DNA of 34,419 nt from a virus. Its lineage: Duplodnaviria > Heunggongvirae > Uroviricota > Caudoviricetes. The stretch lies in IMG/VR virus record IMGVR_UViG_2671180847_000009; one strand, written 5' to 3'. Made by a program: the position numbers and the translations under genes. Below the pieces are notes generated by a model. It was given only the letters and a program-made list of their open reading frames with translations. It was not told the origin of the DNA and did no database searches. Shown in pieces: positions 1,571-17,127 of this stretch (its first letter is position 1; each line of letters starts with the position of its first letter).

Positions 1571-3268
1571 TCAGGCGATAAGGTCGCCGTATTTTTCGCG
1601 CAGGCTCGTAGCCTGCAGGGCATCTGCGGCAAGTTCGCCGCTGTTCATTGGTGCGCCAGTGTTGTTGTGGGTGTGGTTTGCTGTGTGCGTGGCCAGCAAT
1701 TGAATCAGATCCAGAATATCAATCAACAACGTCAGCAGATTAAGTTCGGATTTTTCCCGTGAGCCACCGCGACCAATAAATACTGTCGGGGCTGTAAACT
1801 TCAGACCGCCGTCCGCCCGGCATGTTCTGCGGCCTCCCACGTTTTCAGTCAGGTCCTGCTCAATTGTGGATATTGTCCCTTTGAGTTTAGTCAGCAAATC
1901 CTGCGCTACCATCTGGATATGCTCGCTGGCTGCGATCGCGTAATGGCCGGTAGTAAGGTGCTCTATTTGTCCTGCCGCCAGCTTGCTGGTTCCCAGAACA
2001 CTGGTTATGTCGTTTGCCCGTACTGTGGTTGTTCTGGTTGTTGTGGTGCGCTCTTCTGCATCACTGTTAATTGTGCGGGTGGCTGACTGCTCCCTGATTT
2101 GCTGGTCTGTTTCTCTGTGCCAGCTTCCGTCAGTCGTGACGCGCTGAAACACTTCTGCGCGCTGTTGCTGCAGTTGTTCGCCGGGCTTTACATCAGGCAG
2201 GTTATGGCCAGCAGGTAAGATTTGCCTGATAACAGGTTTATCCGGGCGCCCTTCAATGTTAGATATTTCCACGATGGTGCCTGCCGGCGGGTAGGCAAAA
2301 CATCCCGCCTCGCTACCAGCCATCGGGACGGGGAGTGGGACTGCCGGGTAAACAGGCGTATCGCTTTTATCGTTGCCGTCCTCATCGAGCAGTTGCACGT
2401 CCACGGCGTAGCGTGGACGGAAGCTGTCGGCCACATCGCCCAGGGTGGCGGATTCCGTTGGTGCAATGACGCGCGCCAGCCTGGTGTGTAGTGTGCCGCT
2501 GGCCAGTTCCGGGAACTGTGTTTCCATCTGTCTGCGTAATGGTGATTTGGAGACAGGGCTGCCCGTGACGGTAAGGCGCTCCCACGTCAGAGTCATTTTC
2601 TCGTTGTTGAGGGCTACGCGGGTAATACGCCCGGTGGGAAGATTCACGCCCGGTCGCACAGTTTCCATGAACATGATGTCGATGCTGTTTCCGCCGCTTT
2701 GCCCGAGAGCGTACTGTTGCGGAATATCCGGCATCGTAATACTGGCAAATCGTGAATCAGCGGCGCTTCCCACAAATACAGAACCGTCCGGCATTGGGTG
2801 CCAGACGTAATCGCTGATACTGAATGCGCGCCCCAGCTGGCTGAGTAGCTGCGTTCCGCTGCCGCTGTGGGTGATGTAGGGGGTTGGTGTGTTGACATAA
2901 TCCGCGTCCGGGGTGATAAAAACGATGCCGCTTTGTCGTCCCAGATTATCTAACACCTCCCGCAACGTCGGGTGTTGCATGGAGCAGGGGAAATCAAAAT
3001 CCAGCACAGCAGCTGCTTCACGGATAAAAAGGCGGCGCGAACCATTTTCGGCGGGTTGGTCGCGTTCAACGTAGCCGGAGAAATAGCGCCAGACTTCACC
3101 GTCACGGCCGAGATCAATTTGTACCATTGCGCCGGCAAGGCTTTTTTCTGGTGACAGATTATTAACAGAAATGAAGCCACGACCGGCAGCATTCAGGGTA
3201 AGAACAAGGCTTATATCGGCAATTTCCACCCGTTCGCCATTAATCATGCAGCGTTGTATCAATTTCAT
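1571..3268 (-). CDS. Phage tail/baseplate protein, 565 aa (possibly central hub or spike; P2 gpD-like by position)
   Basis: Last gene of the late tail operon, start overlaps stop of upstream gene (ATGA coupling); size and position suit a baseplate hub. No motif recognised with certainty. Confidence 0.4.
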   Translation of the reverse strand: MKLIQRCMINGERVEIADISLVLTLNAAGRGFISVNNLSPEKSLAGAMVQIDLGRDGEVWRYFSGYVERDQPAENGSRRLFIREAAAVLDFDFPCSMQHPTLREVLDNLGRQSGIVFITPDADYVNTPTPYITHSGSGTQLLSQLGRAFSISDYVWHPMPDGSVFVGSAADSRFASITMPDIPQQYALGQSGGNSIDIMFMETVRPGVNLPTGRITRVALNNEKMTLTWERLTVTGSPVSKSPLRRQMETQFPELASGTLHTRLARVIAPTESATLGDVADSFRPRYAVDVQLLDEDGNDKSDTPVYPAVPLPVPMAGSEAGCFAYPPAGTIVEISNIEGRPDKPVIRQILPAGHNLPDVKPGEQLQQQRAEVFQRVTTDGSWHRETDQQIREQSATRTINSDAEERTTTTRTTTVRANDITSVLGTSKLAAGQIEHLTTGHYAIAASEHIQMVAQDLLTKLKGTISTIEQDLTENVGGRRTCRADGGLKFTAPTVFIGRGGSREKSELNLLTLLIDILDLIQLLATHTANHTHNNTGAPMNSGELAADALQATSLREKYGDLIA

Positions 3269-3840
3269 GTTTTCCCTTCCTCTTTCACGCTCCCGATGCC
3301 AACAGCATCCAGACCAGAGCCAACGGCATCATTGATTTTTTTCCAGAACGAACTTTGCGTATTCATGCCTTTGTCTGGTGCCTGTTCGCTACCGTTCTGG
3401 GTCTGCTGTCTGGCGATGGTTTTCTGCGAACCGCTGCGTGCGGATGCTTTCTCTGGCACGCTTAATTTTTCCCTGAGAGTAAAGGTAACCTGCCAGTGCA
3501 TTTTTCCCTGTTGTTCCGTGGCATCAATGCCACCAGAAAATACCCCCTGTCGCATATTGATTGCCTTCGCGGTAGCGTTAGCAATGCGATATGTTTTTTT
3601 AGCACCGTTGCTTTCTGTTGCCTCCGCAAGCTGAAAAATACGGGTCAGAATAGCTTCATCATTAAAATCAATAACCCCCGACACGCGCAGCTCTTTAGCC
3701 TTGTTTCCCTGCTGGGCGCTCGTGGTGCTGGTTGACTGTCCGGACATATCTTTGTCCGGTAGTTGCATGGTGGCGCTGACGGTGATGTTGCGCAGCAGAA
3801 TGGCTTCCCCGTCAAGCGCAAGGACAATCATCTGGGTCAT
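3265..3840 (-). CDS. Putative phage tail protein, 191 aa (gpU-like by position)
   Basis: Co-oriented, translationally coupled ORF between the 237-aa ORF and the 565-aa tail protein. Confidence 0.35.
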   Translation of the reverse strand: MTQMIVLALDGEAILLRNITVSATMQLPDKDMSGQSTSTTSAQQGNKAKELRVSGVIDFNDEAILTRIFQLAEATESNGAKKTYRIANATAKAINMRQGVFSGGIDATEQQGKMHWQVTFTLREKLSVPEKASARSGSQKTIARQQTQNGSEQAPDKGMNTQSSFWKKINDAVGSGLDAVGIGSVKEEGKT

Positions 3841-4525
3841 GTAGTGCCTCCCTTAGTGATGAGAGATTATCGCCGACGAACAGCATCACAGCTGTAAAAA
3901 CCCACTCGGGGTGTGGGATGTTTTTTTGTATCAGCACTGCAGCCTGGCTAAGGGCTCCCTTGTAGCAAAAGCGCCACACCGGGCAAAATTTTTGCCGGAG
4001 TGCAGCCTGCTGATCAGCGATTTCCTGTAAGGCTTTATCTCTCGCATTCATGAACTGATGCAGTGATGATGACAATGTTTCCGGTGATGTGGCGGCAGGA
4101 GTGGCTGCCTGTGCAATGGTTGCCGCCAGCGACATGCTGCGAGTGGTCTGTGTCGACAGCATTATCGGTTCCGGAAGTGATGTTGCCGGTCTGGCGGGGA
4201 TTTGCATTCTGCTGATGGCCAGTGAAAGCTGGCTGGAGATCATGCGGGACATTCGTCCCACCTCCGGCAACGGAAATGCGCCTGAAAATTGCCTGGCGAG
4301 TGATAAAAACTCGTCAGCAGAAGGAGCGCAAAATAACAGCGCCACAATGTCCTTTTCTGTGTTTTCTTTCAGATAGGGTAAAAGTGCAGATACAGCATTT
4401 TCGGGGCTGAGATAACGCCCCGATGGTTTGATGTTTCCGGTATTTTCTGACCATGGATGCAGGCAAACCACAGAGCATTTAATGTTCATGGCTGACGGGC
4501 GCAGAATTGCCTTTTCCCATTTCAT
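3812..4525 (-). CDS. Hypothetical protein, 237 aa, unknown function (cargo candidate at end of fibre region)
   Basis: Only long ORF spanning 3841-4521; start overlaps stop of upstream tail-fibre assembly gene; Ala/Ser/Thr/Pro-rich low-complexity middle; no recognisable family. Confidence 0.4.
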   Translation of the reverse strand: MKWEKAILRPSAMNIKCSVVCLHPWSENTGNIKPSGRYLSPENAVSALLPYLKENTEKDIVALLFCAPSADEFLSLARQFSGAFPLPEVGRMSRMISSQLSLAISRMQIPARPATSLPEPIMLSTQTTRSMSLAATIAQAATPAATSPETLSSSLHQFMNARDKALQEIADQQAALRQKFCPVWRFCYKGALSQAAVLIQKNIPHPEWVFTAVMLFVGDNLSSLREALHDPDDCPCA

Positions 4526-15924: not shown

Positions 15925-15943
15925 AATTTGTCTCCTGATTTTG

Positions 15944-16657
15944 TTATCTCGTGCCGCCGTAATGCAGGCTGCGCAGCTGCGCTTCCAGAATGCGGGCAAA
16001 TTCAGCATCGCTGGCTCCCAGAAATGCGCGGGAGGGGATTTTGATTTCCCATACACGTTTTTTCTGCTCGCCTTTCAGAATGCTGATCACCAGTCCGGCC
16101 TGCGCCATACTCATGTTTTCCATAATCCATTTCAGAGAAGGCTTTCTGCGTCCCCTGCGTCCGGTTTTTTTGCTGACTGCGCCGACGGGGGCGCGAAAGC
16201 CCAGAGAAAGAAGGCGTTCTGCCTGCCGTCGTGTGGCGGGACGGGTGCGCATGGCTTCGCTGTCCCGGCGTTTTGTGGCGCGGCCTTTGATGGTTGCGCC
16301 GTGCTGTTGCACCCACGCGACCGCCCCACCATGAGAGCCGGTGTTGTAATCCCCTTTTTTGAAGAAAAGGCGGACACTTTTCCCGCTGCCGTCAACCCTG
16401 ATGGCCAGCAGTTTCGGCAGTCCCAGCAGCATTTTGTTTTTATACCTGCCGCTGGCTTTATCCGGTCTTTTTCGTGGTGCCCAGGCTGCCCCCTCCGGTG
16501 TTCGCTGTGCTTTCACATTGCGTCGAGCAGCCGGTATCAGGCCGTATTTCGCAATGCGAACCAGCAGCTTTCTGGCCTTTGCCGGCGGAAGTTCTGCCTC
16601 TCTGATGGCGCGACGAACCTGCCGGAGTTGTGACTCGTTAATCACGGGGCGCGTCAT
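15944..16657 (-). CDS. Virion morphogenesis / tail completion protein (gpS-like), 237 aa
   Basis: Between head completion gene and sheath; basic C-terminus; start overlaps upstream gene stop. Confidence 0.45.
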   Translation of the reverse strand: MTRPVINESQLRQVRRAIREAELPPAKARKLLVRIAKYGLIPAARRNVKAQRTPEGAAWAPRKRPDKASGRYKNKMLLGLPKLLAIRVDGSGKSVRLFFKKGDYNTGSHGGAVAWVQQHGATIKGRATKRRDSEAMRTRPATRRQAERLLSLGFRAPVGAVSKKTGRRGRRKPSLKWIMENMSMAQAGLVISILKGEQKKRVWEIKIPSRAFLGASDAEFARILEAQLRSLHYGGTR

Positions 16658-17127
16658 GGCGTCACCTGACAGTGAAGCTGATGCGCCTGAGCCACCCAGA
16701 TTTCAGGTTTTTCCAGCCGGTAACGTTTCCCGCCTCTGGGGATGGGGCCGTTTTCGTCCTCAACCAGCGTGATGGGATCAACCAGCGGCAGACTGATTTC
16801 CAGCCATGCCACTTCATTTTCATCATCCACTTCGACGTCAACGGCTGGCGCATCCGGTGCCAGGCGCTGCCGCAGGTCGCCGCCGTTGTCTGCCAGCCAG
16901 GCTTCAACCAGAGAAAACACCAAATCCGGATTGAGCTGACGATAGGGCCATGCGTCCCATCGCAGAAAAGCCGTATATTTTCGGACCTGCGTACATAACT
17001 GCCCGTGCCCCAGCGACTTCGTAAACGGAACGAGCGTGATGTCATCCATGTCACTGGTGAACGGAATGCGTGTGCGTGCCGGCAGATTGTTTTCAATGAA
17101 TGCCGTCAGGCTGGCGAGTTGCGTCAT
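16654..17127 (-). CDS. Tail completion protein (gpR-like), 157 aa
   Basis: Position directly after the gpL-like head completion gene. Confidence 0.4.
   Translation of the reverse strand: MTQLASLTAFIENNLPARTRIPFTSDMDDITLVPFTKSLGHGQLCTQVRKYTAFLRWDAWPYRQLNPDLVFSLVEAWLADNGGDLRQRLAPDAPAVDVEVDDENEVAWLEISLPLVDPITLVEDENGPIPRGGKRYRLEKPEIWVAQAHQLHCQVTP

Follow-up and report, generated by a model that had tools for sequence, protein, structure and literature searches.

An apparently intact HP1-subgroup tail module with a predicted VgrG-like hub-spike protein in a P88-type/HP1-type chimeric prophage

The window analyzed in this work is a 34,419-nucleotide stretch of DNA from a tailed-virus record (Caudoviricetes; IMG/VR record IMGVR_UViG_2671180847_000009) that carries a prophage, and the subject is the tail and lysis module at positions 1571–17127 of this stretch. 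All 18 tail open reading frames (ORFs) of the module lie on the minus strand. In the order of transcription, R and S precede the sheath and tube genes, which are followed by genes for a holin, an endolysin, a tail assembly chaperone, the tape measure protein, a DUF2590 protein, J, I, a tail fiber, and a fiber-assembly protein; behind these come a second fiber, a DUF4376 protein, and three distal proteins of 237, 191, and 565 amino acids (aa). Families were assigned by hidden Markov model (HMM) scans against Pfam, PHROG, and NCBIfam, and start codons were refined. A first-pass annotation had listed the same order, described it as a rearranged P2 tail in a mosaic prophage, and recognized no clear homolog of the spike protein gpV. 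The HMM annotation and the comparison with the P2 annotation bore out that the order differs from that of P2, and the families did not fall in the standard P2 order. No separate gpV gene was found among the tail ORFs either, and the HMM scans gave no above-threshold match to Phage_base_V or Phage_GPD. The evidence described below indicates with high confidence that the region 1571–17127 is a complete, apparently intact HP1-subgroup tail and lysis module within a P88-type/HP1-type chimeric prophage.

The relationship of the module was determined by comparing every protein of the window with HP1, vB_YenM_324 (YenM_324), P2, and P88 by tblastn. The head and tail genes were colinear, gene for gene, with HP1 orf15–orf35 and YenM_324 gp11–gp35 at 23–75% aa identity, the tail part alone corresponding to HP1 orf21–orf35 and YenM_324 gp18–gp35, and the matches rose strictly along HP1 (17061 to 32157) and YenM_324 (13579 to 26982). 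The sheath, tube, chaperone, DUF2590 protein, J, I, and the three distal proteins had no tblastn match in P2 or P88; likewise, V, W, J, I, FI, FII, E, U, and D of P2 and P88 received no tblastn match from the window, so the marks of a P2-subgroup tail were not found. The HP1-group families in the module were DUF2586, Phage_HP1_Orf24, Phage_TAC_10, DUF6890, DUF2590, and HP1_ORF34. The sheath protein matched 76 phage records and the 565-aa protein about 75, all from HP1-group hosts or genera (Haemophilus, Pasteurella, Vibrio, Aeromonas, Pseudoalteromonas, Pseudomonas phi3, ESSI-2-like phages, and YenM_324). When the tail region was searched against deposited phages by blastn, the fiber cassette alone was matched (phiP27 and Rac-SA53), and therefore no deposited phage is a close relative.

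The individual proteins are consistent with this relationship. R (16654–17127, 157 aa) is a gpR-like tail terminator (P2_Phage_GpR, E 3e-16; phrog_65 "tail terminator") with 35% identity to YenM_324 gp18 and 23% to HP1 orf21, and S (15944–16657, 237 aa) is a gpS-like tail completion or neck protein (Phage_tail_S, 1e-8; phrog_26) with 38% identity to YenM_324 gp19 and 28% to HP1 orf22. The HP1-type contractile sheath (14776–15924, 382 aa, ATG start at 15924) matched DUF2586 (about 1e-128) and phrog_907 "tail sheath" (1e-147) and was 47% identical to HP1 orf23 and 55% identical to YenM_324 gp20. The HP1-type tail tube (14324–14779, 151 aa) matched Phage_HP1_Orf24 (1e-50) and phrog_1182, with 51% identity to HP1 orf24. 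The tape measure protein (10853–13027, 724 aa; PhageMin_Tail, 8e-29) was 40% identical to HP1 orf27 over 663 aa and 25% identical to P2 gpT. Among the baseplate genes, the gpJ/gp6-like wedge protein (9336–10523, about 394 aa; Baseplate_J, 1e-31) shared 55% identity with HP1 orf29 and 60% with YenM_324 gp29, and the gpI-like protein (8704–9339, 211 aa) matched Tail_P2_I weakly (7e-5) and phrog_1228 at 9e-82, with 48% identity to HP1 orf30. The DUF2590 protein (10513–10863, 116 aa; DUF2590, 5e-36; 57% identity to HP1 orf28) occupies the gpW/gp25 position and is the presumed sheath initiator.

The Peduoviridae have been split into an HP1 group and a P2 subgroup whose tail genes diverged far more deeply than their head genes (PMC10612066). 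Table S1 of that study pairs HP1 orf23 with FI, orf24 with FII, orf26 with E (including a programmed frameshift), orf27 with T, orf29 with J, orf30 with I, and orf31 with H; it leaves orf33 without a partner, gives orf34 as "gpU?", an uncertain case, and divides orf35 between D (N-terminal part) and V (C-terminal part). Because of this pairing, the HP1 order can be described as that of the P2 operon FI-FII-E-T-U-D altered at three points: W-J-I-H-G stands between T and U, V has become joined to D as its C-terminal part, and the lysis cassette, which in P2 precedes R and S, follows the tube gene. As judged by homology, the tail layout in the window is the standard HP1-subgroup Peduoviridae arrangement, which has already been described. 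The earlier description of a rearranged P2 tail was thus right in that the order is not that of P2, but the layout is the HP1-subgroup norm and not a rearrangement of a P2 tail.

The first-pass annotation had further proposed that the three distal proteins may include a fused or divergent hub or spike. The last gene of the module (1571–3268) encodes the 565-aa protein, which matched phrog_2258 "baseplate protein" (3e-232) and showed 38% identity to HP1 orf35 over the full length (566 aa) and 47% to YenM_324 gp35. Its parts are a gpD/gp27-like hub (about residues 1–250), a gpV/gp5-like oligonucleotide/oligosaccharide-binding (OB) domain (about 264–364), a poorly modeled, presumably beta-helical region, and an HxH tip. 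A monomer AlphaFold (AF2) model was built on a 31-sequence alignment and searched against the PDB with Foldseek. The model was confident for residues 1–250, and the predicted local distance difference test (pLDDT) score was about 75–95 across residues 1–240. The full-length model matched Pvc8, AlgoCIS, several type VI secretion system (T6SS) VgrG proteins, and Afp8 (E 1e-15 to 1e-12). The hub alone matched Mu gp44, the MuSo2 43 kDa protein, the pyocin R2 hub, T4 gp27, and the N-terminal halves of VgrG proteins, and the spike alone matched Mu gp45, with P2 gpV at E 0.056. At the sequence level, the Phage_base_V match of the 565-aa protein itself was sub-threshold (E 0.02; 15.7 bits versus a cut-off of 23.8), and the Phage_base_V OB domain was matched in every one of the 31 family members (best E 7e-6). 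Gp5_trimer_C was matched in 19 and Gp5_C in 9 of these 31 relatives, and NCBIfam TIGR01646 (VgrG) gave a weak match at residues 264–364. Sequence searches of the PDB with the 565-aa protein, its family profile, the ORF34 profile, and the orf33 profile returned nothing significant; information came from the fold searches only. H532 and H534 were invariant in the 31 sequences down to 48% identity; P2 gpV has H197-K-H199. The HxH tip lies 31 residues from the end of the 565-aa protein versus 12 in gpV, and the HxH motif is reported to be the sole universally conserved feature of iron-loaded spike tips. For HP1 orf35, the same hub-spike fusion has been noted previously (PMC10612066, Table S1, footnote d). 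On its modeled fold and conserved motif, the 565-aa protein is a VgrG-like fused hub-spike that holds the "missing" gpV, with a predicted metal-binding HxH tip. The fold matches, the OB domain, and the HxH motif make the earlier guess of a fused hub/spike a correct one.

The fold matches of this protein also bear on whether the locus belongs to a phage tail or is instead a defective remnant, a tailocin, or an island of the T6SS or extracellular contractile injection system type. Such an origin would suit the top folds (VgrG, Pvc8, and Afp8), the name "T6SS Vgr family protein" given by the Prokaryotic Genome Annotation Pipeline (PGAP) to a close relative in an E. coli record, and the lack of detected spanins and of a detected cos site. 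However, the portal, terminase, scaffold, capsid, head-completion, lysis, replication, Cox/C, and integrase genes are contiguous and intact, a tape measure, fibers, and a chaperone are present, TssB/C/K-type and Afp-type ATPase genes are absent, and the nearest relatives are the isolated phages HP1, ESSI-2, and YenM_324. We consider an island or remnant highly unlikely and interpret the region as the tail module of a phage.

Upstream of the hub-spike gene lies the gene for a 191-aa baseplate protein (3265–3840; HP1_ORF34, 1e-53), the putative tube initiator or ripcord and gpU equivalent. It has a tail-tube-like fold, its gene adjoins the hub gene, and it falls in the class of pyocin PA0626, P2 gpU, and Mu protein N. 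The 237-aa protein (3812–4525) is a homolog of HP1 orf33 (25% identity, E 4e-17) and of YenM_324 gp33, annotated as "structural protein" (34%), and matched phrog_1677/31292; no Pfam or PDB match was obtained for it in HMM and profile searches. A word-indexed homolog search returned 32 matches for the 237-aa protein, 75 for ORF34, and more than 1100 for the 565-aa protein. A homolog of the 237-aa protein in ACA1 appears with low counts in a supplementary protein-detection table (PMC10612066), and we regard this protein as a presumed minor virion protein specific to the HP1 group.

Several points weigh against this assignment of the module and of its parts. All functions were derived from homology and predicted folds. 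In the hub-spike model, residues 353–508 had pLDDT values below 50, and a monomer was modeled for what is presumed to be a trimeric beta-helix. An hhalign comparison of a 60-sequence DUF2590 alignment with three gpW sequences gave a probability of 0.3%, and the comparisons of ORF34 with gpU and of the 565-aa family with gpV were also negative. No spanin (Rz/Rz1) genes were recognizable next to those for the holin and endolysin (13509–13572 and 13915–14023), and the P2 cos sequence is absent from the window even with three mismatches allowed. The target profiles in the hhalign comparisons were shallow (1–3 sequences), and the proteins compared may still be homologous. Furthermore, the DUF2590 protein had no Pfam GPW_gp25 match even at E values up to 10, and relaxed Pfam scans of the sheath, tube, DUF2590, and orf33 homologs provided no tie to canonical sheath, tube, or gp25 families. 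The DUF2590/gpW, ORF34/gpU, and 565-aa/gpV equivalences rest on fold, motif, gene position, and the published HHpred table, in which HP1 orf28 is paired with P2 gpW at 17% identity (PMC10612066). The earlier label "W-like" is accordingly one of position, which fits the placement of the gene but has no hhalign match to gpW behind it.

Taken together, these assignments suggest how the tail could work. R and S would finish the joint between tail and head, the DUF2586 protein would form the sheath, and the HP1_Orf24 protein would form the tube. The chaperone, made in two forms through a −1 frameshift, would set tail length together with the tape measure protein. DUF2590, J, and I would build the baseplate wedges, and host binding would be carried out by two fibers, each with a putative assembly protein encoded behind it. 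ORF34, as an adaptor with the tube fold, would initiate the tube on the hub, and the 565-aa protein would serve both as hub and as membrane-piercing spike within a single chain, whose HxH tip presumably binds iron; a separate gpV or PAAR protein would therefore be unnecessary. The PAAR-type cap family had no match in any ORF scanned.

The first-pass annotation had considered the head genes to follow the P2 order. The head, packaging, and late-activator genes (17137–23714; L, M, N, and O on the minus strand, P, Q, and Ogr/Delta on the plus strand; Phage_GPL and Ogr_Delta families) are of the HP1 group. In pairwise comparisons, P was 53% and 60% identical to its counterparts in HP1 and YenM_324 versus 43% and 35% in P2 and P88; the corresponding values for Q were 54% and 53% versus 37% and 30%, and N was 57% identical to that of YenM_324 versus 29% for P2 and 26% for P88. 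By these identities, the head proteins Q, P, O, N, M, and L resemble their HP1 or YenM_324 counterparts more than those of P2 or P88. Because the head genes also belong to the HP1 group, there is no head/tail mosaic.

The DNA comparison placed the borders elsewhere. By blastn, positions 24618–34419, which span part of a parR-like gene, ParM, gpA, small early genes, Cox, C, and Int, were 91–95% identical to P88 9972–108, and positions 1–911, which include hok/gef, were 86% identical to P88 35667–34759. Between these stretches, only three short matches to P88 were found, all in the fiber region (71–128 nt, 72–80% identity). The junctions lie at about 911/912 and 24617/24618, the latter inside the Plasmid_stab_B (parR-like) gene. 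Nucleotide similarity to Xuanwuvirus does not extend over the whole prophage, as about 23.7 kb of late genes are without a P88 match. A P2-type phage whose tail was rearranged, as first proposed, or replaced by a foreign one, with the mosaic junction between head and tail, would agree with the head order Q, P / O, N, M, L, with the Phage_GPL family and the PGAP name "major capsid protein, P2 family," and with Int, C, and Cox proteins that are closer to P2 than to HP1 (47%, 44%, and 36%). However, HP1 shares that head gene order, all of the head proteins have their nearer counterparts in HP1 or YenM_324, and the P88 breakpoints (about 911 and 24618) do not coincide with the L/R boundary near 17130; we judge this reading improbable. 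The prophage is indeed a mosaic, but its seams do not separate head from tail. From sequence identity, it has a P88-type backbone in which the whole late region (about 912–24617, including the Ogr-type activator) has been replaced by an HP1-type one. A replacement of the late arm is concluded because the late genes of P88 itself are P2-type, V and D being separate there.

The sharp fall from about 93% to no P88 DNA identity at 24618 and at 911 might also be expected if an assembly artifact had fused two prophages. The same junction, however, was found at about 99% identity and with full coverage in 37 of 5426 complete E. coli genomes, which are mostly independent, and the tail module was found in 41; the chromosome of E. 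coli AJ1 has an identical layout between flk and the integrase gene, and ETEC1716 and STEC711 are further carrier strains. We give almost no credence to an artifact. By comparison, DNA matching a 1.6 kb query centered on the partition region, mostly in the ParM part of that query, was present in 1280 of the 5426 genomes. The chimeric structure leads us to favor, somewhat more than its alternatives, a lineage that is a viable Peduoviridae recombinant between subgroups, with a P88-type immunity, replication, and partition arm and hok end joined to a complete HP1-subgroup late arm.

The fiber cassette shows a smaller exchange. Tail fiber 1 (6953–8707, 584 aa; Phage_tail_fib and Phage_fiber_2) has an N-terminal region 36–49% identical to HP1 orf31 and YenM_324 gp31. 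It is followed by the tail fiber assembly protein (6396–6950, 184 aa; Caudo_TAP, 8e-21), which is 37% identical to P2 gpG and 43% identical to the P88 tail fiber assembly protein. The second tail fiber (5094–6389, 431 aa; Phage_tail_fib, 4e-11) has no HP1 or YenM_324 counterpart and lies within a phiP27-like cassette, and the DUF4376 protein behind it (4522–5097, 191 aa; DUF4376, 2e-16) stands at the position equivalent to phiP27 L57. From this position, the DUF4376 protein is probably the chaperone of fiber 2. Both fiber genes encode an N-terminal tail-collar domain, and the Caudo_TAP and DUF4376 genes follow them, respectively. Window positions 4598–7656 were about 93% identical in DNA to the phiP27 L54–L57 fiber cassette, and a similar identity was found to the fiber genes of Rac-SA53. 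By sequence similarity, the N-terminal collar domain of fiber 1 is HP1-type and its C-terminal part comes from a laterally exchanged cassette. This is a smaller swap of a typical kind, and phiP27 has a different baseplate.

The chaperone gene (13215–13508, 97 aa) encodes the gpE equivalent (Phage_TAC_10, 2e-26; 40% identity to HP1 orf26). At its end, the chaperone reading frame contains an in-phase A AAA AAA heptamer (13224–13218), from which the −1 frame is open into the DUF6890 ORF (13027–13173; 2e-23), so that the slippery site and extension together occupy 13027–13224. In HP1 and YenM_324, an in-phase A AAA AAC heptamer is found at the same place and is followed by a homologous −1 peptide. 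Because of the in-phase heptamer, the open −1 frame, and this conservation, DUF6890 is most likely the −1 frameshift extension of the chaperone and the equivalent of gpE', giving a gpE+E'-type product. The gene that had been labeled simply as a chaperone would thus be better described as a chaperone with its frameshift extension.

The lysis genes lie between the tube and chaperone genes. The holin (14024–14320, 98 aa; Phage_holin_3_2, 6e-28) was 58% identical to YenM_324 gp22 and 39% to P2 gpY, and the M15 metallopeptidase endolysin (13573–13914, 113 aa; Peptidase_M15_4, 3e-11) was 75% identical to YenM_324 gp23. A 35-aa ORF (13911–14018) is located between the two. The gap between the endolysin and chaperone genes is just 64 nt, where YenM_324 has two annotated spanin genes. 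In this gap, a hairpin with a 13 bp stem but without a clear T-tract (13535–13566, minus strand) could be an attenuator or an RNA processing element within the late operon.

Sigma-70-like promoters were not found in the minus-strand late region; four sites were found in total, versus 14.2 ± 3.9 expected. A terminator-like hairpin (1509–1532, minus strand) with a 10 bp stem containing six G-C pairs, followed by TTTCATATCC, lies 39 nt downstream of the stop codon of the 565-aa protein. The lack of a minus-strand sigma-70-like promoter and the strong terminator behind the last gene fit a single activator-dependent late operon that runs from O (near 20382) to the hub-spike gene. The gene for the Ogr/Delta zinc-finger protein (Ogr_Delta, 1e-12) is directly behind the portal gene, a placement shared with YenM_324. 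A perfect 10 bp inverted repeat, TTTCGGATAT-N6-ATATCCGAAA, occurs at 20466–20491 in the divergent P/O intergenic region and may be a candidate binding site for the late activator; inspection of this intergenic region by eye revealed no P2-type TGT-N12-ACA site.

Between the hub-spike gene and the hok arm, positions 912–1570 form a 660 bp stretch without a convincing gene. It contains an 88-aa ORF with a TTG start (1096–1362), to which no family was assigned, and is bounded by terminator-like hairpins facing both ways (1004–1021, plus strand; 1532–1509, minus strand). By analogy with HP1, this stretch is the expected place of cos. Short-word blastn of 912–1570 and 23700–24650 against the ends of HP1, YenM_324, P2, and P88 gave no usable cos similarity, and a tRNA scan detected no tRNA genes. 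At the same end of the prophage, within the stretch 86% identical to P88, a 46-aa ORF (about 600–740, minus strand) encodes a Hok/Gef-family toxin (MSQKSLTAITFCVTAILIIWMLHGSLCEIRM...). On the other side of the late region, an Rrf2-family regulator gene (23783–24208, minus strand; Rrf2, 4e-13) is located between the Ogr gene and the partition genes; it sits in the part without P88 similarity and has no counterpart in HP1, YenM_324, P2, or P88. A plasmid-type partition pair, ParM with a Plasmid_stab_B/ParR-like gene, is also carried by the prophage (24456–25734, minus strand). The ParM protein (319 aa; StbA_N and ParM_N) was 100% identical to P88 gp17.

For annotation, these results mean that DUF and hypothetical genes can be given tail roles, and that a finding of no gpV is not equal to a missing spike. 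Genes are misnamed in deposited HP1-group records, in which the sheath appears as "topoisomerase," ORF34 as "adenine glycosylase," and the hub-spike as "head completion protein," for example in NC_070917.1 at 14771–15910 and 24791–25336. The breakpoints are precisely mapped for a swap of the whole morphogenesis half between two P2-like subgroups. The early arm is present in about a quarter of complete E. coli genomes, with the HP1-type late arm attached in less than 1%. Should the prophage prove inducible, it would rank as a new E. coli phage at the genus level, and the recombinant, if real, would be a clear counterexample to reports that exchange between the two deeply diverged tail lineages is scarce. 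The 237-aa orf33-like protein would then stay an HP1-group-specific baseplate component without structural relatives.

Compared with known systems, the early arm is shared with P88 (Xuanwuvirus) and its relatives Shae_phiSM and vB_EcoM-569R5. Int, Cox, gpA, ParM, and several small early genes are 94–100% identical to P88 in protein and 91–95% in DNA, whereas the C repressor is 72% identical, other early genes are 65–84% identical, and two have no P88 match. The late genes of P88 are P2-type (X, V, W, J, I, H, G, invertase, FI, FII, E, T, U, and D), with separate spike and hub, and its head proteins are only 24–36% identical to those of the window. The P2 tail has the same parts list as that predicted here, namely a terminator, sheath, tube, frameshifted chaperone, tape measure, wedges, fiber with assembly protein, adaptor, hub, and HxH spike. 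It differs in gene order and operons, in its separate hub and spike genes, and in lysis genes placed before R and S, and no sequence similarity to the window is detectable for its sheath, tube, W, J, I, U, D, and V. VgrG of the T6SS, Pvc8, and Afp8 combine a gp27-like hub, a gp5-like OB domain, and a beta-helix in one chain, an architecture also predicted for the 565-aa protein; they share 10–14% identity with the window protein, which is encoded by a phage late-operon gene and has its own HxH tip.

The closest isolated phages for the late arm are YenM_324 (Tresduoquattuorvirus) and the ESSI-2-like phages (Cronobacter ESSI-2, Salmonella SW5/SI7), which have the same gene order. YenM_324 differs in that most proteins are less than 60% identical and no match is found at the DNA level; its early regions are unrelated except for gpA (35%), Rz/Rz1 spanins are annotated between its endolysin and chaperone genes, and it has a single fiber. 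HP1 (Hpunavirus) has the same order from the portal to the last gene, with the lysis genes between tube and chaperone and with orf33-orf34-orf35 behind the fibers and a fused hub-spike, as in the window, but aa identity to it is only 23–57%. Its own features are one fiber with one assembly gene, a lysozyme-type endolysin, orf25, and a CI-type repressor, whereas the window has the second fiber/DUF4376 pair, an M15 endolysin, and a P2/P88-type Int-C-Cox region. An HP1-type module with a fused hub-spike is already known, and the prophage represents no new kind of system; it carries this known module on a P88-type backbone.

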